From a bacterium BMS3Abin06 (GTDB taxonomy: Bacteria; Nitrospirota; Thermodesulfovibrionia; UBA6902), in assembly GCA_002897895.1 (NCBI GenBank), contig BDSY01000037.1, positions 7,306 through 71,305 on the forward strand: a stretch of DNA of 64,000 bases, given 5' to 3'. Position numbers and translations under genes: made by a program. This document shows, one piece after another, positions 5,087-22,350 of the stretch (its first letter is position 1; each line of letters starts with the position of its first letter). Below the pieces are notes generated by a model. The model made no database searches. It was given only the letters and a program-made list of their open reading frames with translations, and was not told the DNA's origin.

Positions 5087-5095
5087 CTCTTTAGA

Positions 5096-5968: not shown

Positions 5969-6666
5969 TTTTTGGTAACCCCAAGAAGGAGAGATGTTAA
6001 AATTCCGGGAGCGACAAACCCCTGATACCAGAATAACTTACGCAGGAAAAAATGTATTAAACCGACCAATGCCTTTCTTGTAAAACCCATTTTTTGAAAA
6101 GGAAGTATCTGAATATTGCGAAAACCTGCAATCCATAATACCTGGTATAAGCTCTTATCGGTAAATCCTATTGTATGGGTAAAATCCTTATACCTGGAAA
6201 AAATAGCAAATGGATTTCCTAAATTAGGGGTTTTCACGAGAAACACACCGCCATGCTTAGATGCCTTGTTTACTAAGGTTAAAAATTTAACTATCTTATT
6301 CTTAGGTATATGCTCCAATAAATCATTTGCCACAATTACATCATAATAATTATCTTTTCCTTTTAAAAACTCAAAAGCATCCGCAACTTCTACCTGCTGT
6401 GAGATATTTTTTTTACAAAAATCTACCTGTTGAGGTGAAATATCTATTCCTAAGAAATTTTTATACCTCTTCTTTTTTAAAAAATTAAGGAAGTGGCCGG
6501 TTCCACAGCCAATATCCAAAATTCTCACATCCCTATTTGACGGCAAATGCTTACTACAATTTAATTCATACTTCATAAAATCTTGTTTGTATTCTTTCGC
6601 TGTGAAGGTGTTGGAATTTTCAAAAATAGCGTTAAAATATTCTCCAAAGAGTTTTTCTTGTCCCAT
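5965..6666 (-). CDS. class I SAM-dependent methyltransferase
   Basis: ILDIGCGTGHFLNFL motif I and DVIVANDLLEHI motif. Overlaps the previous gene by 4 bp. Confidence 0.7.
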   Translation of the reverse strand: MGQEKLFGEYFNAIFENSNTFTAKEYKQDFMKYELNCSKHLPSNRDVRILDIGCGTGHFLNFLKKKRYKNFLGIDISPQQVDFCKKNISQQVEVADAFEFLKGKDNYYDVIVANDLLEHIPKNKIVKFLTLVNKASKHGGVFLVKTPNLGNPFAIFSRYKDFTHTIGFTDKSLYQVLWIAGFRNIQILPFQKMGFTRKALVGLIHFFLRKLFWYQGFVAPGILTSLLLGVTKK

Positions 6667-6667
6667 A

Positions 6668-7675: not shown

Positions 7676-7867
7676 ATTAAGATTTTTATCGTGTACTGCC
7701 GCGTTTTAAATTTTCCATATTCCCAGGCAATTATGCATTAACAGTTCTTACTTCTTCATCTCATAAAATATACCAATTCGACTGATTATGTTAACTTTGC
7801 GGCACATCTCTATGGCTTTTATATTTTGTTCCACAGTTATCTTTTCTGCATCAAGTCCAATAGTTTC

Positions 7868-9295: not shown

Positions 9296-9337
9296 AAGAA
9301 TTTCTTTAAAATAAATTACTACTGTTTACCTGTAGAG

Positions 9338-10711
9338 TTACATATCTTTCTGGGAAAACATAGCAATTTTCGGCAGCATTACTACTATTGCCGTCAAAAA
9401 CCAGAATGGCTCCATAATACGGATAATAATAAATGTACTGGCAGAAAAAGCCTGAAATAACAGCCCGATAAAACCGGCCAAAAATCCCAGGGTTAACCCC
9501 CGGGCCCAATCGTCTTTCATAAGGTTGAGAGTCCGTGTCCCCTCCCAGAAAATACTTGCCATCAACCAGACAAATACCAAAAAACCGATCAGACCTGTCT
9601 CTCCCAGGACACGGGCATATTGTGAATCAACAAAACCGACACCTGTAACCCCATATCCTAAAATGGGGCGTTTGTACCATTTCTCTATTACATATTTCCA
9701 TATCTCTATACGCGCTGCGCCGGATTCTGCAAATGTGATCTGTCTGCCGAACACAGTATAGACTTCTCCTCCTTGAGCAAAGGTAGAGGATATCCGGTCA
9801 TAAACTGATTCAGGGAATAAAATTGGCGACAAAACAATAATAATTAACAGACATATCAATAAAATATGCCGTGCCTTTTTTTTAGTTAATATTATCATGG
9901 AAATATACATCGGGATAAAACCCAGCCATGCGCCCCGGGACAGTGTAAATATAAATGGCGGCACCATAAAACAAAGAAGCCCCAAGAGTGCAATTCGCTG
10001 TCTTACCGAGTTAGAATATAAAATAAGCCCCATAACTATCGCTATCATTAAAAGTAAATAACCCGCCAGGGTATTCGCCTCTCCGCTCTCTATCCCGTCA
10101 AAAGGGGCGGCAACCCGTGTAACTCCTGTAAGATGCAGTTGCCACGCATAAGCACTGACTAAAAAACAGGTCAGCAATATAAAAAATGTAAACATCCTCA
10201 CCTGTCTTATATTTTTTATATTGTTGCTTACCATAAAAAAAAGCAGGAAATATTCAAAATATTTCAAGAGGTAAAAAAAACTTTCTTTATAACCGGTGTA
10301 TCCTTGCAATATACCCAGGCCTGTGGCTAACAGACATATTAATATATAGAAGAGGATAGGTCTGTTAAGAGAAGTAACCCTTGACAGGGCAAGCTCTTTG
10401 TTTACAGCCATCTTGGCCAGCCAGCCCAAAAAGACCACGAACAAAAATATATCATCCATCCGCAAAACAACGGCCCTGCCTCTAATCCCTCCCACCGGCA
10501 ACTCGGGCGACAGCAGCATTGAAAAGATCAGGATAACCAGCGCTGCATCGGTATTTGTAAAGGCGATTATAAATATAGTTACTGCAAGGAGAAAAATAAC
10601 GGGAAATTGAGGGGGTATTTTAAAAATGTTCAAGAGTGCTACAGCAACAAGAAAGAGTAAGGCAATTACAATAACAAGGCTTGTCTGTCCATTTTTATTC
10701 ATTTTTATCAC
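9338..10711 (-). CDS. O-antigen ligase / Wzy-like polymerase
   Basis: 457 aa polytopic membrane protein with a large periplasmic loop, as in the O-antigen ligase family. Confidence 0.55.
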   Translation of the reverse strand: MIKMNKNGQTSLVIVIALLFLVAVALLNIFKIPPQFPVIFLLAVTIFIIAFTNTDAALVILIFSMLLSPELPVGGIRGRAVVLRMDDIFLFVVFLGWLAKMAVNKELALSRVTSLNRPILFYILICLLATGLGILQGYTGYKESFFYLLKYFEYFLLFFMVSNNIKNIRQVRMFTFFILLTCFLVSAYAWQLHLTGVTRVAAPFDGIESGEANTLAGYLLLMIAIVMGLILYSNSVRQRIALLGLLCFMVPPFIFTLSRGAWLGFIPMYISMIILTKKKARHILLICLLIIIVLSPILFPESVYDRISSTFAQGGEVYTVFGRQITFAESGAARIEIWKYVIEKWYKRPILGYGVTGVGFVDSQYARVLGETGLIGFLVFVWLMASIFWEGTRTLNLMKDDWARGLTLGFLAGFIGLLFQAFSASTFIIIRIMEPFWFLTAIVVMLPKIAMFSQKDM

Positions 10712-11013
10712 TTCAGCCTGCGTATACTGAAAAATACAGCCAGGGCAGAGGTAGCAATTAACAATATTATTACCACCTGTGCATCGAATCTTTTGTAACT
10801 ATAGGAAAACAGGATTAAGGTGCTGACAACTACTGCAGCAATTGCTGCTATGATAAAAAAGATATTAATATTTTTTGTGAGAGATATTAAGAGATAACTT
10901 CCTGCACAGATAAATAAACAGAGCAAAATTAAAAAAAGTAAGAAGTCCAGGCTAAACCTCCTCCGGCTCCGTCCCTGCTTCCTGTTTCTTGCCCGGCTTA
11001 TCCTCATATCCAT
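10708..11013 (-). CDS. small membrane protein
   Basis: Two hydrophobic helices and an Arg-rich N-terminus. It overlaps the wzc 3' end, so it may be spurious. Confidence 0.25.
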   Translation of the reverse strand: MDMRISRARNRKQGRSRRRFSLDFLLFLILLCLFICAGSYLLISLTKNINIFFIIAAIAAVVVSTLILFSYSYKRFDAQVVIILLIATSALAVFFSIRRLK

Positions 11014-13015
11014 ATTTATAAGTCTGGTAATAAGCGTAAGGCGCTACTGCCCTGGTTTTAAGGTTGATCTGATTCAGAACCACTCCCGAGATATCGGCGC
11101 CCACTGATTCTAACTGGATTTTAGCCCGCAAAAGGGCATTCCTGGAGATCCTGCCAATCTCATAACATAGAACAACACTATCTACCCTGGAAGCTAAAAG
11201 GCTGGCATCAGTTACCGGGAGCACAGGGGGCGAATCAAAGAAAATAATATCAAATCTTTCCTTCAGCTCTTCCATCAAGTCTGTCCACATTTTGGATTCC
11301 AGAATTTCCGCAGGATTAACAGGCAAATCTCCGCTGGGAAGAATCCATATATTTTCAATTCCGGGAGGCTTTTTTGTTATTTCGTCGAGTCCCATATCTC
11401 CCAATATAAAATCCGATATATTCCTGAGGGCATCTTCCAGGCTTACAGATCCTGATATAAGTTCAGTCAGTCCCGGCTTTTTCTTTGTGCCGAATGTCCT
11501 GGCAATTACCGGTCGTCTTAAGTCAGAAGAAACCAGAAGTGTTTTTGCGCCTGTCTGAGCCACAGCTAAACCCAGATTTGTCATAAGTGTGGTCTTGCCC
11601 TCCTCTGGCCCTGCGCTGGTCAGGAGAATTGTCTTTTTAGACGGGCCAAGTTTAAGATTGGTCCGAATATTACGACAGGCTTCAGCTACAGAAGATTTGG
11701 GCTGATGATGGACAATCAATCGCATATATGCCTCCTCAGCCTTTTTCCTGCTGATGTGTGAAATTTTCTCCCTGTATTTAACTTCTTTTTTATTAAGTTC
11801 GCTCCGTGCAGAAGGAACCACTCCCAAAACCGGCAATTTGACTACATTTTCTATATCTTCAATAGTCCCGAGAGAGGTATCCAGTGCTTCAAATACAAAA
11901 GCAAGGGCAATACCCAGCAACAATCCCATTATCCCCCCTATAAACACATTCATTTTCCCCTGTGTATCTATAGGTGAGGCGGGCATAACTGCAGGGTCAA
12001 CTATGGAAATATCTCCAACTTTCTGCGCCTCTGTAATACGCGCCTCCTCAAGTTTTTCCTTAAACATCATGAAGAGTTTTTTGTTGACTTCAACCTCACG
12101 AGCTAATCTGCCATATTCCAGCTTTTGTTCGGAAAGACTTTTCCTTCGCGCCTCTAAATCTTTGCTTTGTTTCTCCTGCTGCGCCTTTAAATCTTTGATC
12201 TGTTTTTCCTGTTTTGCCTCTAAATCCTTAACCTGCTTTTCATGCTTCGTTTCCAGATTTTTTATCTCTTTCTTAAGCCGCACTATCCGGGGATGTTTAT
12301 CAGTATATCTCTGAAGGAGGGCAACTAATTCAAATTTTAAATCTACTAATTTTTTCTGAATCGGTTCGAGCAACCTCATATTCATTACTTCATCTGTTTC
12401 ATTAACTTTTTTAATTTCATCCGCTTTGTCCATTTTTTCTTCAAATTTGCTCAGACGATCTTCTGCCTTTTCCAGCCTGCTTCCTAATATTGATAATTGC
12501 TCTTCAATAAACCGGCGGGCGCTGCGGGCCTGCCTGGTCTTTTCCAATAAGTTTTCTTCCACATAAACAGAAGCTGCAGCCTCGGCTAAATCCCTTGCCT
12601 CTTTGGCGCTGCTTGCAGAGGCAGTGATTCTGATAATATTAGTTCGTTCGATTCTCTCGGTTTCTATGCTGTTCTGTAAGTTATTTACTACTTTGTGAAT
12701 CTCCGGGGTGGGAGTCTTATCATTTATTATTCTCAGACGCAAGGCCACCTTTTTCATAATTGGAAATCCCCTGATTATCCTGGTCTGCGATTCCATTACA
12801 TTGCCGGGACTACTTATAATCCACTCTGTAAGCAATCCGGCTATGGTCTTGCGCTCTTCTATTTTGACTGTAGTGGAAGCTTTGTATATCAGGGGAGGCT
12901 GGGTAGAAAGGAATGCACTGCCAATAGTTACAAGAAGAAAGGTTATAATTATGGTAAATTTCCTCTTGTGAAAAATCCTTAAATAATCCCTTAAATTTAA
13001 TTCATATTGCGGCAA
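10952..13015 (-). CDS. wzc: polysaccharide co-polymerase fused to a BY-kinase (Wzc / GumC-like tyrosine autokinase)
   Basis: N-terminal Wzz domain with a transmembrane segment, then a long coiled coil (repeated KDLEAKQEKQIKDLKAQQEKQSKDLE). Walker A LTSAGPEEGKTT. Tyr-rich C-terminal tail YAYYQTYKYGYEDK. Confidence 0.75.
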   Translation of the reverse strand: MPQYELNLRDYLRIFHKRKFTIIITFLLVTIGSAFLSTQPPLIYKASTTVKIEERKTIAGLLTEWIISSPGNVMESQTRIIRGFPIMKKVALRLRIINDKTPTPEIHKVVNNLQNSIETERIERTNIIRITASASSAKEARDLAEAAASVYVEENLLEKTRQARSARRFIEEQLSILGSRLEKAEDRLSKFEEKMDKADEIKKVNETDEVMNMRLLEPIQKKLVDLKFELVALLQRYTDKHPRIVRLKKEIKNLETKHEKQVKDLEAKQEKQIKDLKAQQEKQSKDLEARRKSLSEQKLEYGRLAREVEVNKKLFMMFKEKLEEARITEAQKVGDISIVDPAVMPASPIDTQGKMNVFIGGIMGLLLGIALAFVFEALDTSLGTIEDIENVVKLPVLGVVPSARSELNKKEVKYREKISHISRKKAEEAYMRLIVHHQPKSSVAEACRNIRTNLKLGPSKKTILLTSAGPEEGKTTLMTNLGLAVAQTGAKTLLVSSDLRRPVIARTFGTKKKPGLTELISGSVSLEDALRNISDFILGDMGLDEITKKPPGIENIWILPSGDLPVNPAEILESKMWTDLMEELKERFDIIFFDSPPVLPVTDASLLASRVDSVVLCYEIGRISRNALLRAKIQLESVGADISGVVLNQINLKTRAVAPYAYYQTYKYGYEDKPGKKQEAGTEPEEV

Positions 13016-13027
13016 TAAGCTCCTCCC

Positions 13028-13861
13028 TTAATCCAGGGTCTCCAACCCATGCAATGTCCAAACCCCCTTGGCTATAGGAGAAAGTATCTGGTCAACATAA
13101 TAATTCACATCTGCAATGAATTTCTTGGGAACGTAAACCATATCCTCTGATTGCAGGGTAATATTTTGACTCATGTCGGTTTTATTTATGGCGCGGCTTA
13201 AGTCAAGCCTCATACCTTCAGGGGTCTGAAGTCCACCCCTGACAAGTATAACGCTGGAGGGAACGGCATGCGGCGTAAAGCCATTTGCCAGGGCAATAGA
13301 CTCTAATACGGTTCTTTTTCCACTAACAGAGTAAACCCCCGGCTCATTTACTTCCCCTAAAACAATGACCTTTTTACCTCCCATCTTTCTAAGTGAGATG
13401 GAAACTATAGGGTACCTGATATATTCGCTGAGTCTCTTGCTGAGTTCCTCCCTCAATTGATCAAAGGTCAAACAGAAAGCAGGCACTTCTCCGGCTAAAG
13501 GAAAAGATATTTTTCCATCAGGACGAACAATTACCTCCTGTCTGAGATCGGCTTCTTCCCACACAGATATATACAGCACATCTCCCATATCAATGGTATA
13601 GTCCGGAAACCCGGATTCCCCCTTGACGATAGTGGCTGTTTTCGCTTTTGCTTCCTCTGCATCACCGGCAAGTGTTTGAGTTACAAATAATGTTGTTATT
13701 AACAAAAAAACGGGAAGGACAATCATTGCCCAATTGGAAGGGAGTCTACATCCAAATCCAATTAGAGATTTATCTCTGAACGGGGCGAACTTCTTAACGG
13801 GGTTTGTAATATTTTCTTTGAAATTTTCCACTTCTCCCCCTACAATTTTGAAGTGATTCAT
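13028..13861 (-). CDS. wza: polysaccharide export protein Wza (Poly_export + SLBB)
   Basis: N-terminal transmembrane/signal segment. DVLYISVWEEADL and GEVNEPGVY motifs typical of Wza/KpsD periplasmic exporters. Confidence 0.7.
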   Translation of the reverse strand: MNHFKIVGGEVENFKENITNPVKKFAPFRDKSLIGFGCRLPSNWAMIVLPVFLLITTLFVTQTLAGDAEEAKAKTATIVKGESGFPDYTIDMGDVLYISVWEEADLRQEVIVRPDGKISFPLAGEVPAFCLTFDQLREELSKRLSEYIRYPIVSISLRKMGGKKVIVLGEVNEPGVYSVSGKRTVLESIALANGFTPHAVPSSVILVRGGLQTPEGMRLDLSRAINKTDMSQNITLQSEDMVYVPKKFIADVNYYVDQILSPIAKGVWTLHGLETLD

Positions 13862-13887
13862 TCTAACCTAAAATTGAGCGATTATTA

Positions 13888-14796
13888 TTGTATAATAGCT
13901 ACTTAAGCTTTTATTTCATGGTATATTATCAAGAAACGGAACAAATTAATCAAGTGAAATATATATTAGAAGTAGATGGACTGAGCAAGGATTTTATCCC
14001 TCCTCTCTCTTTCAGAAAATTGATCGGGCTTGATTTCAGGCACAGAAGGCAGACCAGGGCGCTTGAGGATGTTTCATTTTCCCTTAAGAAGGGAAAGATA
14101 CTTGGTGTTCTCGGGCCTAACGGAGCGGGAAAGACCACCCTTTTAAAGATATTAGCTACCCTCATACTCCCGGATAAAGGCAGCGTGCTTATAAACGGCT
14201 GGAGCGTCGGCATTGATGACAACAAAATCAAATCCCTTATCGGGTTGGTCTCCTCACAGGAGAGGAGCTTTTACTGGCGGCTTACCGGGAGGCAGAATCT
14301 TGAATTTTTCGCGCTTATGTATGATCTGGAAAATCCGGGAAACAAAATTGAAGAATTGTTTGACCTCTTTGAGATAGATTACCAGGACAACCGCTTTGAT
14401 TCTTACTCCACTGGAATGAAACAGAAATTCGCCTTAATGAGAGGGCTGCTCAATGATCCGGGGCTTCTGCTTTTAGATGAACCGACCAGAAGTCTGGATT
14501 ACACAACATCCCTGAATTTCAGGAATTTCATAAAAGAGAACCTGGTCCTGGAAAAAGGAAAGACGGTTGTCTTCACCTCCCACAACATGGATGAGGCCAT
14601 GCATTTTTGTGACATATTTATGATACTGCATAAAGGGAGGCTTTATGCCATGGGGACACTGGATGAACTGCGAAAAAAGATAAATAATCAAACTGCGTCA
14701 CTGGGTGAGATATTTGTAAAATTGACTGAAGGGGAAAGCTTGACAAGAAGTCAGAAGTCAGAAGTCAGGAGTCAGAAGAAAAAGAGAAAAAACTAA
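13888..14796 (+). CDS. ABC transporter ATP-binding protein
   Basis: Walker A GPNGAGKTT, signature YSTGMKQK, Walker B LLLLDEPT. The C-terminal tail is encoded by tandem AGTCAGA heptamers. Confidence 0.8.
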   Translation: MYNSYLSFYFMVYYQETEQINQVKYILEVDGLSKDFIPPLSFRKLIGLDFRHRRQTRALEDVSFSLKKGKILGVLGPNGAGKTTLLKILATLILPDKGSVLINGWSVGIDDNKIKSLIGLVSSQERSFYWRLTGRQNLEFFALMYDLENPGNKIEELFDLFEIDYQDNRFDSYSTGMKQKFALMRGLLNDPGLLLLDEPTRSLDYTTSLNFRNFIKENLVLEKGKTVVFTSHNMDEAMHFCDIFMILHKGRLYAMGTLDELRKKINNQTASLGEIFVKLTEGESLTRSQKSEVRSQKKKRKN

Positions 14797-14930
14797 ACAG
14801 TTTCAAGTTCCAAAGCAATTCTGGATTCTGGATTCTGACTCCTGGCTTCTTTATCGGATATCTTAATAATACCCTGTGAACTATTACAAAATAATTTGGC
14901 CCTTAGTGACTTTATGGCGGAGCAGTTTTT

Positions 14931-15737
14931 ATGTTGAAAAAACCATTGGCTTTTGTAAAAAAAGATTTTCTGGCCGAATCCAGCTATAAGCTCTCTTTTA
15001 TATTCAGGATTTTTTCTGTTCTGACAAGTATCCTGAGTTATTATTTCATTGATAAGCTCTTCGGCAGCAGAATGGTCGGATATCTGGAAGAATTCGGAGT
15101 AAATTACTTCTCATATGTGCTTCTGAGCACGGCCTTTTTCAGTTATGTAGGGGTGGGGTTAGGATCTTTCTCCGGCAGGATCCGCTCTGAACAAGTACAG
15201 GGAACACTCGAAGCCCTGCTCATGACTCCCACAAAGATTTCGACTATTTTATTCTCCATGTCCCTCTGGAATCTGCTCTTTGCAACCCTGAATATGGTCA
15301 TCTATCTTATGGCGGGTAAATATTTATTCAAGATCAGCTTTGACAATATAAATATATTATCCACCTTTGTGATATTGATTCTGACTATTCTCTCTTTCAG
15401 CAGCCTGGGGATACTTTCGGCAAGTTTCATTATAGTATTTAAACGCGGGAATCCTGTGGGCTGGGTAATAAGCAGTCTTGAGGGGCTAATCGGAGGAGTT
15501 TATTTCCCCATTACCGTCCTGCCGGTATGGCTGCAATTTCTGGCGAAATTTTTCCCTATCACTTATGCTATCAGGGCCATTCAGCTGGCGGTTTATAAGA
15601 ATTACTCCCTCACACAACTCACAAAGGAGACAGGATTTCTGCTGCTATTTTCTATCTTACTCCTTCCTTTAAGCCTTTTCTCATTTAAATATGCCCTCAA
15701 AAAAGCCCGCCGGCATGGAAGTCTTGTTCAGTATTAA
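14931..15737 (+). CDS. ABC-2 type transporter permease
   Basis: 268 aa, about 6 membrane helices, immediately after the ATPase. Confidence 0.7.
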   Translation: MLKKPLAFVKKDFLAESSYKLSFIFRIFSVLTSILSYYFIDKLFGSRMVGYLEEFGVNYFSYVLLSTAFFSYVGVGLGSFSGRIRSEQVQGTLEALLMTPTKISTILFSMSLWNLLFATLNMVIYLMAGKYLFKISFDNINILSTFVILILTILSFSSLGILSASFIIVFKRGNPVGWVISSLEGLIGGVYFPITVLPVWLQFLAKFFPITYAIRAIQLAVYKNYSLTQLTKETGFLLLFSILLLPLSLFSFKYALKKARRHGSLVQY

Positions 15738-16873
15738 AAAAAATTTCTGACTATTCTCCGGTAATAATGAAAAGCATTTATGTTAGACAAAGGAAGAGCA
15801 AAATTATGCCCCATTACATAAGGCGAGGGGAAAAGTGTCCTGCCCATAAAACTTAATTTACTGAAGAAACCTTTCTCCATGGAAAGATAAATAAGATAAG
15901 ACAGCCAATAATGTCTTACACCTTTACGCATAAAGAGGGAAAATATCCTGTCTGAAAGGCTGAACCCGGCGGGTTTTAATCTTTCCAGTTCGGGGATTTC
16001 AAAATTCAACAAGTTAGAGGCAAAAGAGAGGGAATAAAACAAGACCGGGGATAAATTAAATCTTTCTGCCTCCCCGACAACTAACTCATAGTCAAGCCTC
16101 TCTTTATAGTGTCTTAAGGTTTCTAAAATGTCGGCAAGTAAAATCAGCCTGTCAAAGGAGTGAGTAAGGCTGTGCTGGGATAAATAAATCAAAAGATGCT
16201 CCGGAGCTAAAGTCAATGCCTCAATTCCACCTATCCTCGTTGCCCGGGCACATGACCAGATTCTTTCCATATCAATTTTATTTACAAGAGAATCCAATGG
16301 CCAGGTGGTATTAATAAGATGCCAGTGAAGATGGACCACAGCGCCGGGGGTTTTTTTTAGATAAACAAGTGAATTTACAGGGGAAGGCGGAGCAATACTC
16401 AGAGCATCCCGGTGGTTTGTGGTTGCAAGAAATCCTGAGCTCTTCAGGATTTTATCGACTTCAGAAAGATCATCTTTCCTTACAAGAATATCAATATCTC
16501 CTATCGGCCTAAAGGCGATATTTTTATAAATATTTTCAGCCAGAAAAATTCCTTTAAGGACAATCGCCTTTATATTTTCTTCATTAAAGATTTTAAGTAT
16601 CTTTTTTGTCTCCCCGCTGATTATCATATTTCTGGCAGAGTTTCTGTGATAGTAATTTCTTAATTGCTCTAAATATTGGGAGGGGACATAGGCCTTGAAT
16701 TCAGAGTTGTTTAAATGATAATAGACCAGACAGGAAACCCCTTCATTCCAGGACTTTTCAAGAATATAATCCCAGTCCGGACGGGTTTTTAATAATTCCT
16801 CTATCCGGCTTATCTCATACTTATCCGGATTAAGCCGGGAAAAAAGAAAAATCAGCCTGTCTTCCTTTCGCAT
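15734..16873 (-). CDS. nucleotidyltransferase-family protein (NTP_transf_5-like), accessory gene of the RiPP cluster
   Basis: Probable start is the internal Met MRKEDRLIFLF, which abuts the upstream stop. DIDILV and HLHWHL motifs fit the uncharacterised nucleotidyltransferases common in RiPP loci. Confidence 0.5.
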   Translation of the reverse strand: MRKEDRLIFLFSRLNPDKYEISRIEELLKTRPDWDYILEKSWNEGVSCLVYYHLNNSEFKAYVPSQYLEQLRNYYHRNSARNMIISGETKKILKIFNEENIKAIVLKGIFLAENIYKNIAFRPIGDIDILVRKDDLSEVDKILKSSGFLATTNHRDALSIAPPSPVNSLVYLKKTPGAVVHLHWHLINTTWPLDSLVNKIDMERIWSCARATRIGGIEALTLAPEHLLIYLSQHSLTHSFDRLILLADILETLRHYKERLDYELVVGEAERFNLSPVLFYSLSFASNLLNFEIPELERLKPAGFSLSDRIFSLFMRKGVRHYWLSYLIYLSMEKGFFSKLSFMGRTLFPSPYVMGHNFALPLSNINAFHYYRRIVRNFF

Positions 16874-16875
16874 AT

Positions 16876-17502
16876 TCACCTGTGGCCTGGTGTCCTGGAG
16901 GCTGAAGGGAGGGATGCCTCGTTTACAAACAACCGGAAAGGCCGTTGGATTGCCCATTGGCTCCTGCCGGGCATCAGCCTGCCGATTACACGCCGTCCCA
17001 TAATCAAATGAAATTCCGTTCCGGCAGGCCGGTCAAAACAAAGAACGCGGGTTTGCATCCATGCGGGAAGCCATCGTCTGAGGACGTGTGTTTGAGCCAG
17101 CCTGTGATAGAGGGGGTGGAGCAAAGAGGATATTTTTAAATCTATCATACGGATGGCCCTGATTCCCGATGAGTATAACCGGCCCCTCACCCCCCCGTAA
17201 ATCAACCGCTGCCTGTTTCCCCGCTGCGCCCGGATAACACGCCCGACAATGCTCTCAGGTCTGAGAATCCACGGGTCAATATATCTACTTCTGTCCCCCT
17301 GGGTTCTGATCCCTGTAGCATCAACAGAGATAACCCGGTGGACAACCATTCGGTTGCTCTCAGGAGAGGGGAAAACAATCACATCTCCACATTGAATTTT
17401 TTTTCCATTGCAAGGTAATACATGGAGTATATCAGAAGCCTTCAGAGCAGGGTTCATGCTTGACCCTACGCAGACTATGGTTTTACAGGTATCACCGCTC
17501 AT
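16876..17502 (-). CDS. S24/S26-family (signal-peptidase-like) serine peptidase, candidate leader peptidase
   Basis: VCVGSSMNPAL matches the GDSMxP catalytic-Ser motif. A beta-rich core is followed by a basic C-terminal extension. Confidence 0.5.
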   Translation of the reverse strand: MSGDTCKTIVCVGSSMNPALKASDILHVLPCNGKKIQCGDVIVFPSPESNRMVVHRVISVDATGIRTQGDRSRYIDPWILRPESIVGRVIRAQRGNRQRLIYGGVRGRLYSSGIRAIRMIDLKISSLLHPLYHRLAQTHVLRRWLPAWMQTRVLCFDRPAGTEFHLIMGRRVIGRLMPGRSQWAIQRPFRLFVNEASLPSASRTPGHR

Positions 17503-17503
17503 A

Positions 17504-18391
17504 CTAAAGAACCTTCTCAATCTCATCCCTGAACCGTCCGTCACGACTTAAGCGAAGGATATATGCAGGAACAGCTCTTGCCAATTTGCAGGCATTGTCA
17601 AAAATTTTCTTCTTAATCTCGCCCTCTTCCTCAGCGTTCAGATTCCTCCAGATAGGACGACACACTTCTGTAGATGAACGATTGATAAATACCGCAGCCT
17701 GTCCCTGACCTATGGGAACTGCTTCCTCGGATTCTGCCTGTTCTATAAAAAATATTGCAGTGAGAGGAGCGCATCGCTCAACATTCCATCTCCGCTCCGA
17801 CTGCTGCCAGAGATAATCACTCCATGTGGGAATGGGATGGGCCAGATAGCCTTTGCGATCATCTCGGACAATGAGGCTCTGATCATCGCTCAGGGCATGC
17901 CACGAACGGGGAAGTCGCCGGCATAAGGTAGATTTCCCGGAACCTCCCGGACCGGCTATTAAAATACCCTTCCCGTCTATCTCAATAAGCGCTGCATGAA
18001 CCGGAAGCCCTCCTGAGTCCATCATTTGTAAATAGATGATATACAGTGATGTCCACATCCTTACGATATCTAATTCGTGACTGCACTCATCCCCGATTTC
18101 ACAGATGATGTCGGACACTGTCCGGTGGGACCAGAACCGGAGTGCCCGGAAATCATGAGACTTCCACCCGCTTTCCGGAAAGTTCTCATCTATCTCCGGA
18201 AACCCGTCTTTTCCCGCCCCCCTCCGGACGAAAAAAATCCCCGGACAATTGCTGCGCCTGTCCCGTCCATTAGCCTTCAGTTCCATAATCGCGGCAAACT
18301 TCTCCACCCACGATATAGTATCAAGGGTGGACTTGATGAGCCGGCCACTGCCGTTGCCCAGTTTTAACATGTAGGCGGGTTTGGTCATCAT
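17504..18391 (-). CDS. HPr-kinase C-terminal-domain-related protein (ScmC-like)
   Basis: P-loop GILIAGPGGSGKST in an HprK-like context. It sits next to two radical SAM/SPASM genes and a PqqD gene, as the SynChlorMet cassette protein ScmC does. Confidence 0.6.
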   Translation of the reverse strand: MMTKPAYMLKLGNGSGRLIKSTLDTISWVEKFAAIMELKANGRDRRSNCPGIFFVRRGAGKDGFPEIDENFPESGWKSHDFRALRFWSHRTVSDIICEIGDECSHELDIVRMWTSLYIIYLQMMDSGGLPVHAALIEIDGKGILIAGPGGSGKSTLCRRLPRSWHALSDDQSLIVRDDRKGYLAHPIPTWSDYLWQQSERRWNVERCAPLTAIFFIEQAESEEAVPIGQGQAAVFINRSSTEVCRPIWRNLNAEEEGEIKKKIFDNACKLARAVPAYILRLSRDGRFRDEIEKVL

Positions 18392-18404
18392 TTATATCTT
18401 AACC

Positions 18405-18794
18405 CTATTTCAATGGAAGCCCGAGGATTTGGCATTCTGCTTCTTTTAGCACCTCTGTCAGAGAGGGCGCTATTGAGTCGTATACTTTGTTTTCTATGTG
18501 TTTATGGTGAGGAAAAGAAGAAACAGATTTGTGATGGGGGGCATTATCGTATCGAAATATCTCCTGATCTTTGGAGTTCATAAATTGATACCTGTACTTT
18601 TCTCTGCTGACTGCCGTATTACTATATCTTAGAAACTCAAAAACAGAAAGTTTAGAGCCGTTTTGAAATAACACGAGAACCTCAATGTAACCTGTTGTTG
18701 AACTGGTCAGGGTTAATTGGAATTGATGGCTGATTACTACAGGGGATTTTGTCAGTGCAAGTTCAATATCCGCGGCGTATCGGCTAACCAACAA
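18405..18794 (-). CDS. hypothetical His-motif protein (HHK...HHKH), possible toxin-like partner of the upstream small gene
   Basis: 129 aa. Overlaps the upstream 83-aa ORF by 11 bp. Flanked by the direct repeat described in the findings. Confidence 0.4.
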   Translation of the reverse strand: MLVSRYAADIELALTKSPVVISHQFQLTLTSSTTGYIEVLVLFQNGSKLSVFEFLRYSNTAVSREKYRYQFMNSKDQEIFRYDNAPHHKSVSSFPHHKHIENKVYDSIAPSLTEVLKEAECQILGLPLK

Positions 18795-19035
18795 GAACCT
18801 CTTCTAATGCCCTTTTTGTGGATTTCCAGTCGGCTAATCCCTGAGCCACGGCATACCATTTAAAAAAAACCTCATCATCCCCTGCCAAACCATTGTCAAA
18901 TCTTTGAAGAAACTCATCAGTTGTCCAGTGATACTGTTCCTCAAACTCTTTACATAAGCTTTCCAGGTGGTCTATGGCAAAGATGCACGTTTCCTTTTCC
19001 CTCTCAAGAGAGCGTATTACCTCTGCTTTTATCAT
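18784..19035 (-). CDS. hypothetical small protein, possible antitoxin-like
   Basis: 83 aa, acidic and helical, translationally coupled to the 129-aa ORF. Confidence 0.35.
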   Translation of the reverse strand: MIKAEVIRSLEREKETCIFAIDHLESLCKEFEEQYHWTTDEFLQRFDNGLAGDDEVFFKWYAVAQGLADWKSTKRALEEVLVG

Positions 19036-19076
19036 CCTTCACCCCCTGTCTGTGATTATCTGATGTACAAAGTATA

Positions 19077-19379
19077 TCATCTGTGATATTTAAAAATAAA
19101 GGAAAAATCTTCTATCTCTTTGCCGGTTAAAAAGGGCGGTTTGCTCAGGAAACTGCGACTTTCTGCACGCCAATAATATCTGTTTTGGAAGATTCTTCGC
19201 CATATATTTTCAGGCAAAGTAGCAGCAAACTTCTCCACCCACGATATAGTATCAGGGGTGGATTTGATAAGCCGGCCACTGCCGTTGCCCAGTTTTAACA
19301 TGTATGCAGTTTTGGTCATTTTGTCTGCTATCCCCGGTTTTTGAGCGCGCCGATCATGTTCAATCATCAAGCAACCCAA
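19077..19379 (-). pseudogene. duplicated 5' fragment of the ScmC-like gene
   Basis: MTKTAYMLKLGNGSGRLIKSTPDTISWVEKFAA is nearly identical to the N-terminus of the 17504..18391 product. The DNA repeat is about 19219..19320 versus 18283..18388, roughly 92% identical. Sequence diverges after the repeat. Confidence 0.55.
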
Positions 19380-19423
19380 GATTTCCCATTACTTGCCACA
19401 GTAACTTGGCTTCCAACGCCTCA

Positions 19424-19627
19424 TTATTCATAACTTGCAGCAGTAATTCCAACAGACTCACACACACCTGCAGTGGCACTCGTGCCGTTTGTTATACAGT
19501 CAGCGCTGGCAGTACCCCCTGCCTGACAGTTATTACTGGCAGCGCTACCGCTCAGACAGTCCGCCCCCTCAGCCGACCATTCCTCTTTGCCTGATAATAC
19601 TACCAAGCAAGGCTTTTCATATTTCAT
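19424..19627 (-). CDS. candidate RiPP precursor peptide
   Basis: 67 aa with a charged leader MKYEKPCLVVLSGKEEW. The core is rich in Cys, Ser, Ala, Gly and Thr, with repeated A-D-C motifs (GADCLSG, SADCITNG, AGVCESVG). Same strand, immediately downstream of the two SPASM maturases. Confidence 0.55.
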   Translation of the reverse strand: MKYEKPCLVVLSGKEEWSAEGADCLSGSAASNNCQAGGTASADCITNGTSATAGVCESVGITAASYE

Positions 19628-19658
19628 ATTATCTCCTCCATATAAGCAAAATCATCCC

Positions 19659-20747
19659 TCAACTTTTCCTTGTCAAACGAGTCTCGGGAAAGAGACCCTT
19701 GCGGTTTATCTCCTCGCAGAACCAGAATGGCGCCCAGAGAGACTTGCTCAGGTAATAATTCTGGGCAACACAACTTCCGAGACAGCGGCTCTTCATAAGA
19801 CATTCCCCGCAAATACCCTCAAGTCGGCCGGGAAGTCCCTCCCGGAGTTCCTTAAGAACAGGGCTGTCGTCCCAGATATCCTTTAGGCGATCTGCTGCCG
19901 CATGACCAAAGACAAGCTCGGGCACTGTCTCTCCAATGCCACACATGGCATAAGAGCCGTCAGCCAGAACCCCGAGAATGCCGCGGATCCCGCAGATACC
20001 ACACCCACCTCCATTATTGCCGAACATCCTGGAAAGGGGGCGGAAGGCGAGCGGATGGGAGTAGTGAAGACGCAGTTTTGTCAAAGGAGAAAGAACCTTT
20101 TCCACCCATTCTCCTAATTCCACAAGCTCTTCAATATCGAGGGTCTGCCCTGCATCATGCATCTTTTCGCCTCGCGCAGTGGGCTGAAGGATATTGAATT
20201 TGACAGAACCGCAGCCAAGCGATTCAGCAAGGTGTACCACTGACTTCATCTGATCTTTATTACGCGACATGATAGTCATAATGACCTGAGGTCTGAAGCC
20301 GGCATTTACCAGATTTCGAATGCCCTCCCCGGCTGCCTCAAAACAACCCGAAACCCCGCGCATCCACTCATGGGTTTCAGCATCCGCTGCATCCAGACTC
20401 ACCGATACAAAGGGATTCTTACACGCAGCCATCTTGAGCGCCAGACCTTCCGTGCAAAGAAGACCATTGGTCTCTACGATGAGCCGGAGGTCATTGGCCC
20501 GAATCTCATCAAGGATTTCATGAATCTGAGGATGCAGAAGCGGTTCACCTCCGGTTAACTTGACCCCGGAAAGCCCCAGGGGCTTTGCCTGCCTGATTAT
20601 GGAGCGGAAAAGCTCCGGAGAAAGAGAAGGGTAAGAACTGCTCCCGCCCTGGTATCCCGGGTCAATCCAGCAATGACGGCAGCGAAGGTTACACCCCTCA
20701 GTCAGATAAAAGTAAATCTGATTCAGAGAAAATTTACGGTCATTCAT
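19659..20747 (-). CDS. radical SAM/SPASM domain peptide maturase (ScmF-like)
   Basis: CNLRCRHC (CxxxCxxC) radical SAM cluster. C-terminal SPASM cysteines (CGICGI..., CGECLMKSRCLGSC). Confidence 0.8.
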   Translation of the reverse strand: MNDRKFSLNQIYFYLTEGCNLRCRHCWIDPGYQGGSSSYPSLSPELFRSIIRQAKPLGLSGVKLTGGEPLLHPQIHEILDEIRANDLRLIVETNGLLCTEGLALKMAACKNPFVSVSLDAADAETHEWMRGVSGCFEAAGEGIRNLVNAGFRPQVIMTIMSRNKDQMKSVVHLAESLGCGSVKFNILQPTARGEKMHDAGQTLDIEELVELGEWVEKVLSPLTKLRLHYSHPLAFRPLSRMFGNNGGGCGICGIRGILGVLADGSYAMCGIGETVPELVFGHAAADRLKDIWDDSPVLKELREGLPGRLEGICGECLMKSRCLGSCVAQNYYLSKSLWAPFWFCEEINRKGLFPETRLTRKS

Positions 20748-20810
20748 TTTTTATTCTTTTATACATGACGACTTATAAAATTTCGCATAATATGAAATTC
20801 TCCCAAAGTC

Positions 20811-20872
20811 TGTCATGCCGGCTTGTCCGGCATCCTTCCTGGAAGAAAGATTCCCGACAAGCGGGAATGACA
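20811..20872. repeat. hairpin MITE (family A), solo copy
   Basis: tgtcatgccggcttgtccggcatc...gattcccgacaagcgggaatgaca, the same inverted-repeat arms as the GIY-YIG element at 41774..42180. Confidence 0.7.
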
Positions 20873-20934
20873 CAACATGCGCAATAATTTATGACGCTCT
20901 GTATAGTTATCCTGATTTATCCTGTTAATCCCGT

Positions 20935-22038
20935 CTAAAAACTCTCCTCAGGAAGCCTCCCGCCATCTTCAAGAAACCTTCTCAGACAGGCATCCGGACT
21001 GGGATGATTCTCCTTGCCCAAAGTCGTGTAAGCCAATGCAGGACAATTGCCCGCACAATAAGGGATGTAATCACACCCCCTGCAAAACTCAAAATCACTC
21101 AGGGGAATACTGCGCCGCTCCCTCAGCCGCTCCAGCTCCGGATGATCCTGCCAGACCTCTCTGAGATTATCATTCCTGATACAACCCAGTTCCATATGGC
21201 CCAACTGAATGCATGGGACCATGGCACCGTCAGCGCGCACCGCCATCTTATTCCCCGGTCCGCCGCAACCGGTGAGATAACCCCTCCCGGGAATGCCTTT
21301 CTTCCCTTCACGACGGGCTTGTTCCATTATCAACCAGTTTTTCGCCTCAGCCAAAGGACCTGCGTTAGCGCTGATGCGTCCCTTGTATTTTTTGTTAAGC
21401 TTCAAAAGGGTCTTCATGGCAAGGGTACGCTCTGAAACAGTAAGCTGGACCTCTTCGGCATTTCTCCGGCAAAGTCCCATAAAAGAGGCAGCGTTGGTCG
21501 AAAAAGACGGGAGGCCGAGAGACTCCAGTAACAACCTTGCTACACCCTCAAGATCATTTACATTCTGTCTATGAATGGTAACACGCACAGACACAGAAAC
21601 ACCGTGCTTTCTCAGATGCTCAATCCCCTCCATGGCCCTGGAGAAATTACCTTTACCCCTGAAGGCATCGTGCGCCATTGGAATTGAGCTGTCGATTGAT
21701 ACCTGCACTGTGTTACATCGTCCGGTGGAAGCCAGAAATGCCGCCATCTCATCAGTAATCAATGTCCCATTGCTCAGGATACTGAATCGCATCCGGTTGT
21801 GAACTATCCCTTTGATGAGCTCACGCAAATCCTTCCGGTAAAAAGGCTCGCCTCCCTGAATACAGACATTCATCACCCCGCAGCGATTTAATTCCTCAAA
21901 GAATTTAAGCCATTCTTCCATAGGAAGATCATGGCCTGTATCCCCGGCGCTTGTAAAATGGCTGCAGTATTTGCAGCGCAGATTACAGCGGTTTGTAATG
22001 TCCAGATCAAGAGACCTCGGGGTACTCATTACCCTCAT
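20935..22038 (-). CDS. radical SAM/SPASM domain peptide maturase (ScmE-like)
   Basis: CNLRCKYC radical SAM motif. SPASM cysteines CRGCDYIPYCAGNCP. Confidence 0.8.
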   Translation of the reverse strand: MRVMSTPRSLDLDITNRCNLRCKYCSHFTSAGDTGHDLPMEEWLKFFEELNRCGVMNVCIQGGEPFYRKDLRELIKGIVHNRMRFSILSNGTLITDEMAAFLASTGRCNTVQVSIDSSIPMAHDAFRGKGNFSRAMEGIEHLRKHGVSVSVRVTIHRQNVNDLEGVARLLLESLGLPSFSTNAASFMGLCRRNAEEVQLTVSERTLAMKTLLKLNKKYKGRISANAGPLAEAKNWLIMEQARREGKKGIPGRGYLTGCGGPGNKMAVRADGAMVPCIQLGHMELGCIRNDNLREVWQDHPELERLRERRSIPLSDFEFCRGCDYIPYCAGNCPALAYTTLGKENHPSPDACLRRFLEDGGRLPEESF

Positions 22039-22044
22039 AAAATG

Positions 22045-22350
22045 TTACCCCTTTTTAACCTCGTAACCGGCCAACCCCCGTTCGGTTAAACTCCGGATAA
22101 AATCCTTAAGATCATCCTCAGCCTCATCGGGTATGTTCTCACAGCTCTCCCGCAGCTTTTCAAAAATGTCTTCCATCGTATGTGATCCGTCAAGCAGCTT
22201 CCAAATGAGTACACCTACAGGATTAAGACCGAAAGCATCCCCGGCATCAGGGTCAAAAAGGATTGCCCAGTCATCAAATTCCTCCCGAAGTACTATTAAC
22301 GGATTGGCTACAGGCATCTCTTTTTCTCCTGTTCCCATCTCTTCCCTCAT
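22045..22350 (-). CDS. PqqD-family RiPP recognition element protein
   Basis: AILFDPDAGDAFGLNPVGVLIWKLLDGSHTMEDIFEKL is a classic PqqD/RRE profile. Confidence 0.75.
   Translation of the reverse strand: MREEMGTGEKEMPVANPLIVLREEFDDWAILFDPDAGDAFGLNPVGVLIWKLLDGSHTMEDIFEKLRESCENIPDEAEDDLKDFIRSLTERGLAGYEVKKG

Follow-up and report, generated by a model that had tools for sequence, protein, structure and literature searches.

The locus described here raises the question of how two small overlapping genes came to lie inside a biosynthetic operon, flanked on either side by a copy of the start of the same operon gene. The question touches a long-standing gap in our understanding of how chromosomal toxin-antitoxin (TA) modules spread, as these are mobile yet usually lack a transposase, an integrase or recognisable ends. 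The window, i.e., the whole stretch of 64,000 nucleotides that was analysed, comes from the Nitrospirota bacterium BMS3Abin06 (contig BDSY01000037.1), and all features given below lie on its minus strand. It offers a clean example because it combines a two-gene cargo, a known target in a defined operon, a duplication that would rescue the target gene, and junctions present in separate assemblies.

The host operon and the inserted gene pair

To judge from its gene content, the host cluster is a SynChlorMet (SCM) radical-SAM peptide (RiPP) cassette, because ScmC, ScmD, ScmE and ScmF all gave NCBIfam equivalog matches above the respective cut-offs and are encoded in one operon. The upstream part of the operon (19659..22350) contains scmF and scmE, coding for radical SAM/SPASM maturases, and scmD, coding for a PqqD-like chaperone, with scores of 615 bits for TIGR04251 (cut-off 400), 645 bits for TIGR04250 (cut-off 400) and 135 bits for TIGR04248 (cut-off 100). 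The scmC gene (17504..18391) is intact and codes for an HprK-like P-loop protein of 295 amino acids, which matches TIGR04249 over its full length (E = 1.6e-87, 293.5 bits, cut-off 125). A small ORF for a Cys-rich peptide of 67 amino acids (19424..19627) occupies the position of the SCM precursor. It matched no family in NCBIfam and Pfam profile searches, and its position makes it the putative precursor peptide gene. No second SCM cassette was found in the 64-kb window. The precursor gene of SCM cassettes normally sits immediately 5' of scmC.

The inserted segment, as delimited by the repeats described below, comprises 823 nt (18392..19214) with a GC content of 40.1%, compared to 50–52% in the flanking SCM core genes and a window mean of 42.3%. 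It carries two genes that overlap by 11 nt. The downstream one, tumE (18405..18794), codes for 129 amino acids from a TTG codon (gene callers start it at the next TTG, resulting in 128 amino acids). The protein is a predicted TumE toxin by its match to Pfam family PF20126 (E = 3.6e-22, 78.6 bits), which exceeds the gathering score of 23.4. Because it reached 79.2 bits against the NCBIfam TumE equivalog NF045777, which is below the cut-off of 90 bits, we regard it as a member of the TumE family and not as a certified equivalog. All 12 invariant columns of an alignment of 40 sequences are kept in the window protein, including H87, H97, K98 and H99, and so is the core FRYDNAPHH ... FPHHKH.

The upstream gene (18784..19035) codes for a protein of 83 amino acids, which matched no Pfam family and reached 23.3 bits (E = 5.3e-05) against the NCBIfam TumA model NF045776 over 33 residues only, below the cut-off of 100 bits. 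The closest homologues of the toxin (at loci L005, L008–L011, L091 and L092) are also accompanied by a homologous upstream partner gene coding for 82–84 amino acids. The profile match, the position and the conserved pairing weakly suggest that this gene codes for a TumA-like antitoxin. The remaining part of the insert is a non-coding leader of 179 nt upstream of tumA (19036..19214), containing a GGGGGTGAAGG ribosome-binding site and a 6-bp inverted repeat, ATATCA-N4-TGATAT, at 19074-19089. The leader may serve as a promoter or operator. A consensus scan of the insert called neither a sigma-70 promoter nor a terminator, with a count no better than that of shuffled sequence. The palindrome was spotted by eye and is short enough to occur by chance. 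In a comparison of the insert with 11 related cassettes, homology was limited to the stretch between about 11 nt ahead of tumA and the stop codon of tumE, leaving the leader unmatched. Because homology is confined to the gene pair, the cassettes have no conserved terminal sequences. Within 10 kb of the insert in both directions, no gene was found to encode an integrase or transposase domain.

TumE-TumA (DUF6516) is an experimentally validated family of translation-inhibiting TA systems with a wide and patchy distribution (Durairaj et al. 2023, PMC10584680). The pair in the window shares with it a toxin of about 125 amino acids, the conserved core and PF20126 domain, and a small upstream partner gene overlapping the toxin start. 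However, the tested systems are proteobacterial and belong to one subcluster (PMC10584680), whereas the clade of the window pair is known from sequence in Nitrospirota, Planctomycetota, Chloroflexota and others, falls below the NCBI equivalog cut-off, and has a partner of 83 amino acids that resembles TumA weakly.

The initial annotation of this DNA had already described two small overlapping genes for 83 and 129 amino acids, the latter with an HHK..HHKH motif, and had read them as a TA-like module or, alternatively, as an immunity pair. The overlap and the motif (PHHK...FPHHKH) are indeed present, and the TA reading is supported by the Pfam match of the toxin together with the weakly TumA-like partner and the recurrence of the pair in unrelated contexts. 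The immunity reading is not supported, since the same gene pair is found in polysaccharide and other unrelated loci.

The duplicated start of scmC

A repeat search returned a two-copy direct repeat of 105 nt at 18284-18388 and 19215-19319, with 90% identity and a spacing of 931 nt; blastn aligned the pair over 98 nt with 92.9% identity (E = 8.6e-38). Read on the minus strand, the similarity starts exactly at the ATG of scmC (18388 and 19319, respectively) and stops at codon 33–34, and the alignment revealed no similarity between the surroundings of the two copies 5' of the ATG or beyond codon 33–34. The downstream copy (18284..18388) forms the 5' end of intact scmC, which starts 13–16 nt behind the tumE stop codon. 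The upstream copy (19215..19319) is a relic of scmC codons 1 to about 33–35, which retains the native upstream region and lies 104 nt past the stop codon of the precursor gene. It opens a fusion ORF for 80 amino acids (19077..19319), whose first 33 residues are those of ScmC with two substitutions, followed by unrelated sequence derived from the insert. This ORF matched no NCBIfam or Pfam family and is already called as a gene in the NCBI record (L002). No other bracketing repeat pairs or insertions of this kind were found elsewhere in the 64-kb window.

A duplication of an scmC-like 5' end had been reported in the initial annotation. Both the repeat search and blastn bear it out, and the duplicated gene start is that of scmC itself; the coordinates given there were off by 1–4 nt, and the quoted identity of 92% varies with trimming. 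The pseudo-ORF of 100 amino acids with an N-terminus copying that of ScmC also exists, at 19077-19379. It represents the frame of the 80-residue ORF, lengthened upstream to a TTG at 19379, and shortens to 80 amino acids when read from its own ATG at 19319.

Because the source is a metagenome-assembled genome and the two copies share identical stretches of about 31–42 nt, the structure might be suspected of being an artefact, in which two strain variants were chimerically joined at shared k-mers. Spanning contigs of 100% identity with both copies present were found in ERZ1742237 (SPAdes-style), ERZ909563 (a k127 contig) and GCA_011040195.1, and a 1.2-kb contig of ERZ1742236 covers the tumE-scmC side only (99.9% identity). 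In the short-k Logan assembly of run SRR7787742, one contig ends within the shared repeat stretch, and another of 956 nt begins inside the upstream copy, crosses the insert and reaches into the downstream one, with 100% identity. These several assemblies, including the contig from another run that contains both novel junctions, argue against an artefact. Moreover, no identical stretch reaches the final k that the contig names imply for the assemblers, and about 10 differences between the copies make them resolvable. We therefore regard the probability of this explanation as practically negligible.

Evidence for an insertion

Loci L171 and L172 contain a fully syntenic SCM cassette, sharing genes for an AAA ATPase, an HD_5 protein, PqqD, two rSAM proteins, the small ORF, ScmC, a protein of 196 amino acids, NTP_transf_5, ABC2, ABC, Poly_export and Wzz. 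Their scmC has one start and follows directly after the small ORF, at a distance of 74 nt, and the TA pair is absent; locus L173 also contains no TA gene. Because this fully syntenic cassette exists without the pair, we conclude that the gene pair in the window represents an insertion, which agrees with the earlier proposal of a duplication-associated insertion into the RiPP cluster. The ScmC proteins of L171 and L172 are just 59% identical to that of the window. When ScmC, the precursor ORF and TumA were looked up by exact match, all contigs obtained had the same structure, and the nearest other ScmC in the collections searched is 64% identical. The proposed target duplication is inferred from distant synteny, whereas the restriction-modification cases discussed below are defined by a three-way alignment.

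Recurrence at other TumAE loci

Direct repeats bracketing tumA-tumE were found at 42 of 134 loci, compared to none in 397 mismatched pairs. Tight bracketing was observed at 31 of 131 other loci, versus 14 of 288 shifted pseudo-cassettes at the same loci (odds ratio 6.1, p = 5.5e-8). The 19 two-copy brackets show a median repeat length of 78 nt, an identity of 89% and a spacing of 951 nt, which means that the repeats enclose little beyond the gene pair. This suggests that the repeat-bracketed layout recurs, with about a quarter of the TumE loci tightly bracketed by host-derived repeats.

The bracket repeats consist of host sequence specific to each locus, in many cases the end of a gene, and range from 23 to 283 nt in length. 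When the repeat units of 36 loci were compared all against all, similarity was confined to three Methanothrix loci and one replicate-sample pair, and where the repeats are readable, they are host coding fragments of scmC, GT2 or GT1-family genes. The repeat at L005 is a duplicated start of a GT2 gene of about 137 nt, beginning within 1 nt of the start codon, and a duplicated gene start is also present at L167; the repeats at L013 and L138 are 3' ends of genes. At 14 loci, we observed arrays of cassettes of about 1 kb between copies of one host gene end. The array cassettes are of TA types where annotated, different TA families are stacked at a single gene end at L005, L013 and L138, and the copy boundaries differ within arrays. 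The ORFs of at least 180 amino acids in eight array or bracket loci included no recombinase; they consisted of housekeeping and polysaccharide genes and one DDE transposase (L077). Locus L116 fits poorly to one simple insertion event, and several of the multi-copy arrays may stem from a site-specific system that has escaped recognition.

Divergence between the two copies

The differences between the repeat copies are concentrated in third codon positions, with 6 of 8 in the window and 16 of 25 at L005. The combined bias is significant against a uniform spread (p = 9e-5) as well as against our own rough expectation of 44% for in-situ decay (p = 0.007). The upstream fragment retains every family-invariant residue of the ScmC N-terminus, and it keeps the family consensus Pro22 where the working ScmC has a Leu. 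The bias implies that the copies were either non-identical at birth or overwritten later. The upstream copy does not appear decayed, a hint that it may have recombined with a related allele. The alternative of a relic of cassette recombination, as proposed in the initial annotation, partly overlaps with this reading, since the copies look allelic and not like a gene and its decayed duplicate. We did not take the codon-position pattern as decisive between duplication in situ and import of foreign DNA, because later allelic exchange could overwrite either copy.

Comparison with known mobile systems

Insertion with long target duplication has been described for restriction-modification units (Nobusato et al. 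2000, Gene 259:99; Furuta, Abe & Kobayashi 2010, PMC2853133), with a further precedent in Mruk & Kobayashi 2014. The repeats of these cases are longer than 30 bp and variable in length, being of the order of 100 bp and reaching about 400 bp, and often overlap gene ends; a genome-wide context analysis showed that flanking repeats are commoner at restriction-modification units than at average genes (PMC2853133). The locus in the window resembles them in being a small addiction-type unit, free of a transposase or integrase and flanked by long direct repeats of its host target. Furuta et al. (2010) required a complete unit inside the repeats, an insert of less than 20 kb, no linked mobility genes, direct repeats of more than 30 bp, and an empty-site genome with a single copy aligning to both repeats. 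Here, both genes lie between the repeats, the insert of 823 nt contains no mobility genes and the repeats are 105 nt long. However, the cargo is a TA pair instead of a restriction-modification system, and we therefore file the locus as a variant of long target duplication, outside the restriction-modification set. The empty site of the restriction-modification cases was aligned from sister strains, whereas only distant synteny is available here. Their authors proposed double-strand breaks as the driver, which a TA cargo would not provide, since TumE is reported to be a translation inhibitor. To our knowledge, the restriction-modification papers do not describe arrays of different cassettes between copies of one gene end. 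A search of open-access papers returned none that treats SynChlorMet or a long target duplication around TA cassettes, an absence that is weak evidence.

Integron arrays offer another parallel, as they also consist of units of about 1 kb with many TA pairs, separated by similar repeats of 60–250 nt, and their TA pairs are thought to stabilise the array. Unlike in integrons, no paired RYYYAAC / GTTRRRY cores were found when the repeats of 11 loci were inspected for such cores and for hairpins, no integrase was seen near the insert or among the larger ORFs of the eight array or bracket loci, and the repeats, where readable, are host coding fragments with variable boundaries. The window also has a single cassette inside a gene and not at an attI site. 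An assignment as integron cassette with attC was rejected on the gap of only 13 nt between the tumE stop and scmC, the nature of the repeat as scmC coding sequence and the missing integrase.

Proposed origin of the insert

With a probability of roughly 0.7, we propose that a TumAE-type type II TA cassette was inserted into scmC by long target duplication. The cassette would comprise the two genes and the leader and would have entered about 100 nt within scmC, duplicating the target from the start codon to about codon 33. As the start codon lies within the duplicated segment, the downstream copy would restore a complete scmC, and the upstream copy would be left behind as the start of the fusion ORF. 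Because the restored gene lies closely behind tumE in the same orientation, read-through along the operon would still be possible. The persistence of the cassette may result from addiction, since its loss by recombination between the repeats would leave the cell exposed to the stable toxin. A survival filter may also act, in which only those insertions are kept whose duplication leaves the target gene intact, and this would produce the association with gene ends.

The two copies diverge in the manner of coding-constrained alleles. For this reason, the cassette or one of the repeat copies may have arrived via homologous recombination with a related allele, or one copy may later have been overwritten by it. 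Possible routes would be homology-facilitated illegitimate recombination or the transfer of a unit already flanked by repeats. In the former process, one homologous anchor and one illegitimate join suffice to insert foreign DNA beside a homologous gene, as was shown experimentally in Acinetobacter and Streptococcus, which belong to other phyla than the bacteria considered here. An illegitimate join downstream of the anchor start would result in a duplicated, allelically diverged segment, which fits the third-position bias. For this route, however, the cassette must already have abutted the scmC start codon in the donor. The process is reportedly treated by de Vries and Wackernagel (2002) for natural transformation. 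In the window, the repeat sets in precisely at the start codon, and at L005 it does so with an offset of at most 1 nt. Such an onset is not predicted by a model of random staggered breaks; it needs either selection or a donor with the cassette already abutting the gene.

A far wider reading is possible, which we put forward tentatively and consider doubtful at present. TA cassettes of several types (TumAE, HicAB, VapC-type, AbiEii and MNT/HepT) may be recombinase-free mobile units that insert at gene ends with long target duplication. Regeneration of the target would allow arrays to form without an integrase, as a homology-driven analogue of integrons, and the repeats might serve as homology arms for the excision and transfer of circles of about 1 kb, with addiction blocking their loss.

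Alternative explanations

The insert might instead be all that is left of a larger integrative element (a prophage, an island or an integrative mobilisable element), which integrated site-specifically at the scmC 5' end with an attP-borne copy of the gene end and then lost everything except the TA pair, leaving the repeats as attL and attR. Integrases often target gene ends with a replacement copy that restores the gene, and SXT/R391 elements in prfC as well as phages and islands in tRNA genes integrate at gene ends and rebuild them. The window shares with such elements the direct repeats of a gene end and the intact target gene, and their element-side copy may also differ from the original, which would be expected chiefly at synonymous sites, matching our data. 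TA modules would be expected as the last survivors of a decaying element, tandem accretion at a single att site could yield arrays like L013, and insertion of integrative elements is one class among the repeat-flanked restriction-modification units (Furuta et al. 2010, PMC2853133). However, elements of this type need a site-specific recombinase acting on a fixed core, whereas no recombinase domain occurs within 10 kb of the insert or, apart from the DDE transposase of L077, in the larger ORFs of the eight loci, and the repeat boundaries vary even within one array. The repeat units are unrelated from host to host, the repeat lengths span 23–283 nt, and the insert of 823 nt and the median of 951 nt for the 19 brackets represent far tighter sizes than random decay would leave. 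We consider this origin unlikely; an outright classification of the locus as a site-specific attL/attR element was discarded on the missing recombinase, the variable copy boundaries in arrays and the locus-specific units.

A local accident in situ, by template switching or ectopic break repair, might also have carried a resident TA cassette from another site of the same genome into scmC. TA cassettes would then have no mobility mode of their own, and their recurrence between repeats would reflect survivorship, the TA cargo merely stabilising otherwise unstable repeat-flanked insertions. This explanation overlaps with insertion by long target duplication and differs from it mainly in emphasis. 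[quoted passage not shown] But duplication in situ followed by neutral decay predicts that about 44% of the differences (our rough estimate) fall on third positions, compared to the 64–75% observed, as well as some loss of conserved residues in the fragment, whereas none was lost and the consensus Pro is kept. Different TA families stacked at one gene end, as at L005, L013 and L138, are also hard to obtain by independent events, and we rate such an accident as quite unlikely. We regard it as highly improbable that the pair represents native accessory genes of the RiPP operon with immunity or regulatory functions, and that the fragment stayed behind after two SCM cassettes had recombined. The pair indeed lies co-oriented within the operon between the precursor gene and scmC, and several copies of SCM-type cassettes per genome are possible. 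This is contradicted by the cassettes of L171 and L172, which do without the pair, by L173 with no TA gene, by the closest homologues of the pair in polysaccharide and other unrelated loci, by the Pfam TumE match of the toxin, by the single SCM cassette in the window and by a GC content 10 points off the SCM core.

Implications

If insertion by long target duplication is confirmed, this mode of mobility would extend from restriction-modification to toxin-antitoxin systems, and the view that DNA cleavage by the cargo drives long target duplication would be weakened. Recent TA insertions could then be recognised by a fragment of a gene end lying upstream of the TA pair, and the route of array formation would become testable; polysaccharide loci are notable among the gene ends accumulating different TA cassettes. 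For genome annotation, short "hypothetical" ORFs beside TA pairs would be explained as relic gene ends. For the natural product pathway of this organism, it would mean that the SCM operon now relies on read-through across a selfish insert or on transcription from it.

Duplication of the scmC start around a toxin-antitoxin gene pair

The start of scmC, the HprK-like P-loop gene of the local RiPP cassette, is present twice in the window as a direct repeat of 105 nt with 90% identity and a spacing of 931 nt (18284-18388 and 19215-19319), which was trimmed by blastn to 98 nt with 92.9% identity (E = 8.6e-38). It was returned by the repeat search as a single two-copy family, and no second insert-bracketing pair of this kind occurs elsewhere in the 64-kb window. 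All genes of the region are encoded on the minus strand, where the similarity begins exactly at the scmC ATG (ATGACCAAA..., 18388 and 19319) and stops at codon 33-34; comparison of the two scmC copies revealed no resemblance 5' of both ATGs or 3' of codon 34. The upstream copy forms a minus-strand ORF from the ATG at 19319, which comprises 80 aa from this codon or 100 aa counted from an upstream TTG, and residues 1-33 are those of ScmC with two substitutions. Enclosed by the repeats are a tumA-like gene for an 83-aa protein (18784-19035, minus strand) and the tumE gene for a 129-aa protein (18405-18794, minus strand), which overlap by 11 nt; scmC lies 13 nt past tumE and has the same orientation. 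Thus the duplication, the pseudo-ORF with its ScmC-like N-terminus and the overlapping gene pair proposed in the initial annotation were all recovered. This layout shows a two-gene toxin-antitoxin (TA) unit about 100 nt inside a formerly single scmC, the first ~100 nt of which are copied on both sides. As the duplication takes in scmC from its start codon onward, the downstream copy constitutes a complete gene.

Three other repeats were seen in the window. Around ten 12-nt units (AGGGAATGATAA) are arranged in tandem in an intergenic region (58266-58391). A 293-nt near-tandem repeat (43696-43988 and 44029-44321; 81% identical, 333-nt period) is located within a 708-aa ORF on the minus strand (42581-44707) and probably represents an internally repeated protein domain, and three related 83-nt segments at 53026-53528, which share 61-73% identity at spacings of 312 and 108 nt, resemble the beginnings of small paralogous genes on the minus strand.

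The operon around the insert is a SynChlorMet (SCM) radical-SAM peptide cassette, with ScmC, ScmD, ScmE and ScmF scoring far over the NCBIfam equivalog cut-offs. A 67-aa Cys-rich ORF holds the precursor position, and an S26-peptidase-like gene and then an NTP_transf_5 gene come after the SCM genes. By Pfam, the 129-aa protein belongs to the TumE toxins (PF20126; 78.6 bits vs. a gathering score of 23.4) and lies slightly below the NCBI TumE equivalog cut-off (79 vs. 90 bits). All invariant residues of a 40-member alignment are present, including the PHHK...FPHHKH core, which accounts for the histidine-rich motif noticed earlier. The 83-aa protein gave a weak TumA match (23 bits), and the closest TumE homologues, found in unrelated contexts, are preceded by a small gene homologous to that for the 83-aa protein. 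The translation-inhibiting TA superfamily TumE-TumA was established in 2023, and its validation in E. coli used proteobacterial members (PMC10584680); a corresponding function of the pair in the window would be carried over from this superfamily.

Evidence for a genuine insertion

The nearest other ScmC in the collections searched is 64% identical, i.e., there is no close relative. A fully syntenic cassette was found in the loci L171/L172, coding for a ScmC with 59% identity and sharing with the window the genes for an AAA ATPase and HD_5 on one side and an ABC transporter, Poly_export and Wzz on the other. In these loci, scmC starts 74 nt past a small ORF in the precursor position, and the TA pair is absent. 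Locus L173, coding for a ScmC with 64% identity, contains no TA gene either, and no precursor was called in the 490-nt gap 5' of its scmC. [quoted passage not shown] 50-52% for the SCM core genes on both sides, and the genes called up to 10 kb away from the insert in both directions encode no integrase or transposase domain. The region-spanning contigs of three assemblies are 100% identical there and contain both repeat copies, and a short contig of a fourth ENA assembly covers only the tumE-scmC side with 99.9% identity. In a short-k assembly of SRR7787742, one contig ends within the shared repeat stretch, and a 956-nt contig begins within the upstream copy, spans the insert and reaches into the downstream copy with zero mismatches. 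An assembly chimera is therefore very unlikely, and the TA pair is a real insertion. The TumE match and the TA-free syntenic cassette support the earlier proposal that a TA-like module entered the RiPP cluster by duplication-associated insertion.

The SCM cassette (15734-22350) may itself be a horizontally acquired block, given the GC contrast of scmD, scmE, scmF, the precursor ORF, scmC and the S26-like gene (47-52%) to the window mean (42.3%) and the adjoining NTP_transf_5 gene (39.9%).

Recurrence at other TumE loci

The first TumE-homologue context we looked at, a polysaccharide locus on a groundwater contig (L005), already shows the architecture of the window. It contains, in order, a 5' fragment from a GT2 glycosyltransferase gene, tumA-tumE, another GT2 5' fragment that has diverged further, an MNT/HepT pair and the complete GT2 gene, and the outer repeat of ~137 nt (82-88% identity) starts at the GT2 start codon. 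This Hainich contig (L005:1620-4578; the same in L006) represents a nested form, and the second fragment is fused to apparent HepT-like debris. Scanning the flanks of 160 further TumE loci, we found direct repeats bracketing tumA-tumE in 42 of 134 usable loci vs. none of 397 mismatched locus pairs. A stricter test, using 600 nt per side and pseudo-cassettes shifted by 2.5-3.5 kb within the same loci as controls, yielded brackets for 31 of 131 real cassettes vs. 14 of 288 pseudo-cassettes (odds ratio 6.1, Fisher p = 5.5e-8). Exactly two copies were present in 19 of the 33 non-redundant positives and 3-11 copies in the other 14. The two-copy brackets show a median repeat of 78 nt, 89% identity and 951-nt spacing, which leaves room for little beyond the two genes between the repeats. 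Gene-to-repeat distances vary among bracketed loci, and homology between the window insert and related cassettes ends at the gene boundaries.

The readable repeats are host sequence, often gene ends. They correspond to the start of a gene for a 517-aa membrane protein (L167; 71 nt, 94%), the promoter plus ~30 initial codons of an antitoxin-like ORF (L056), and the 3' ends of a glycosyltransferase-1-like gene (L013) and a cytochrome-c-like ORF (L138). Integron attC sites were rejected, with paired RYYYAAC / GTTRRRY cores absent from the repeats inspected in 11 loci, and so were cassette-borne repeats, the units of different hosts being unrelated save for three Methanothrix loci and one replicate-sample pair. 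Those archaeal MAGs (L069, L084 and L142; Methanothrix / Methanotrichaceae) contain 5-11 copies of a common ~150-nt unit without paired canonical attC cores among small cassettes including TumAE, with TumE 84% identical between them.

In an Anaerolineae MAG (JBAQCH010000038.1; L013:1-6029), at least five TA-type cassettes are arrayed in the order HicA-type, AbiEii, TumAE, PIN/VapC pair and TumAE. A single ~230-nt unit recurs after every cassette, in copies that are 79-87% identical and differ in their boundaries, and no integrase is visible over the 6 kb. Among the large ORFs of eight such loci, no integrase and only one DDE transposase (L077) were found, and several are polysaccharide-synthesis genes. 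Bracketed TumAE cassettes and arrays are often located in polysaccharide or cell-envelope loci (L005, L013, L015, L069, L142), with genes for GT2, GT1, Bac_transf, an epimerase and a UDP-glucose dehydrogenase fragment; the SCM cassette of the window adjoins Poly_export, Wzz, Wzy and Polysacc_synt genes (1-14800).

The set of bracketed loci is not uniform, as L116 (3506-3749 and 4561-4804) does not fit one simple event: its left copy is 5'-truncated and its right copy is part of a complete small SRPBCC-like ORF, the opposite of the prediction from a single 3'-end target duplication. In L056, a Pseudanabaena MAG, both edges of a 168-nt duplication (4439-4606 and 5423-5590, 97.6% identical) fall on the cyanobacterial HIP1 palindrome GCGATCGC, which hints at breaks or recombination at HIP1 sites setting the boundaries in this host.

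Origin and retention of the insert

Of the differences between the copies, 6 of 8 (window) and 16 of 25 (L005) affect third codon positions (combined p = 9e-5 vs. a uniform spread, and p = 0.007 vs. 44%, our own rough estimate for the case that one copy is constrained and the other decays freely). The upstream fragment retains all family-invariant ScmC residues and, at position 22, the family-consensus proline, where the working ScmC has a leucine; it is therefore not a decayed duplicate. Judged from their sequences, the two copies differ in the manner of alleles whose gene is under selection. One copy would either have come along with the cassette from a related lineage or have been overwritten later by ordinary allelic exchange. 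The arrival of the cassette could be a homology-facilitated illegitimate recombination anchored in scmC, or the transfer of an already repeat-flanked unit with the repeats serving as arms.

The gene-end association may most simply reflect survivorship, because only duplications including a start or stop codon leave the target gene intact. Such selection only partly explains the precise repeat onset, which coincides with the start codon in the window and lies no more than 1 nt from it in L005. Terminator-like sites were not predicted in the stretch from the precursor gene to scmC; thus, operon read-through, possibly also insert-borne transcription, could still serve scmC and later genes. Addiction would plausibly explain retention of the pair, as recombination between the repeats would remove it and leave the toxin unopposed, and might also explain why insertions flanked by repeats, which are normally unstable, appear preferentially when their cargo is a TA or restriction-modification system.

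A degraded integrative element whose attL and attR consist of a gene end would account for the allelic look of the copies and for the arrays, but we consider it unlikely, since no recombinase was seen within 10 kb of the insert, insert size is uniformly minimal, copy boundaries vary and repeat units are host-specific. Slightly less likely still is a purely accidental local event kept by addiction, which overlaps with the reading preferred here. That the genes are a native immunity or accessory pair of the RiPP cluster is highly improbable in view of the synteny and context evidence, and the three assemblies together with the SRR7787742 contig leave an assembly artefact hardly any credence.

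[quoted passage not shown] (2000) proposed and that Furuta, Abe and Kobayashi surveyed. The survey describes a restriction-modification unit without other mobile element, inserted between target direct repeats of >30 bp, variable and on the order of 100 bp (PMC2853133). A later review from the same school states this mode for restriction-modification systems, with TA systems discussed alongside (PMC3874152). Three of the four operational features are found in the window: the repeats exceed 30 bp, they enclose a complete unit, and the insert is short and free of mobility genes. For the fourth, an aligned empty site in a sister genome, the window offers distant synteny only (L171/L172). Because the defining cases carry restriction-modification cargo and the window a TA pair, we regard it as a variant of long target duplication. 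In the open-access literature, we found no paper on this mode for classical TA cassettes or on arrays of this gene-end type. While the single locus alone is tidy but modest, its value lies in the tie to a named, little-studied mobility mode and in the evidence for recurrence, which suggests that TA cassettes bracketed by repeats, and arrays of such cassettes at gene ends, are common among environmental bacteria and archaea.
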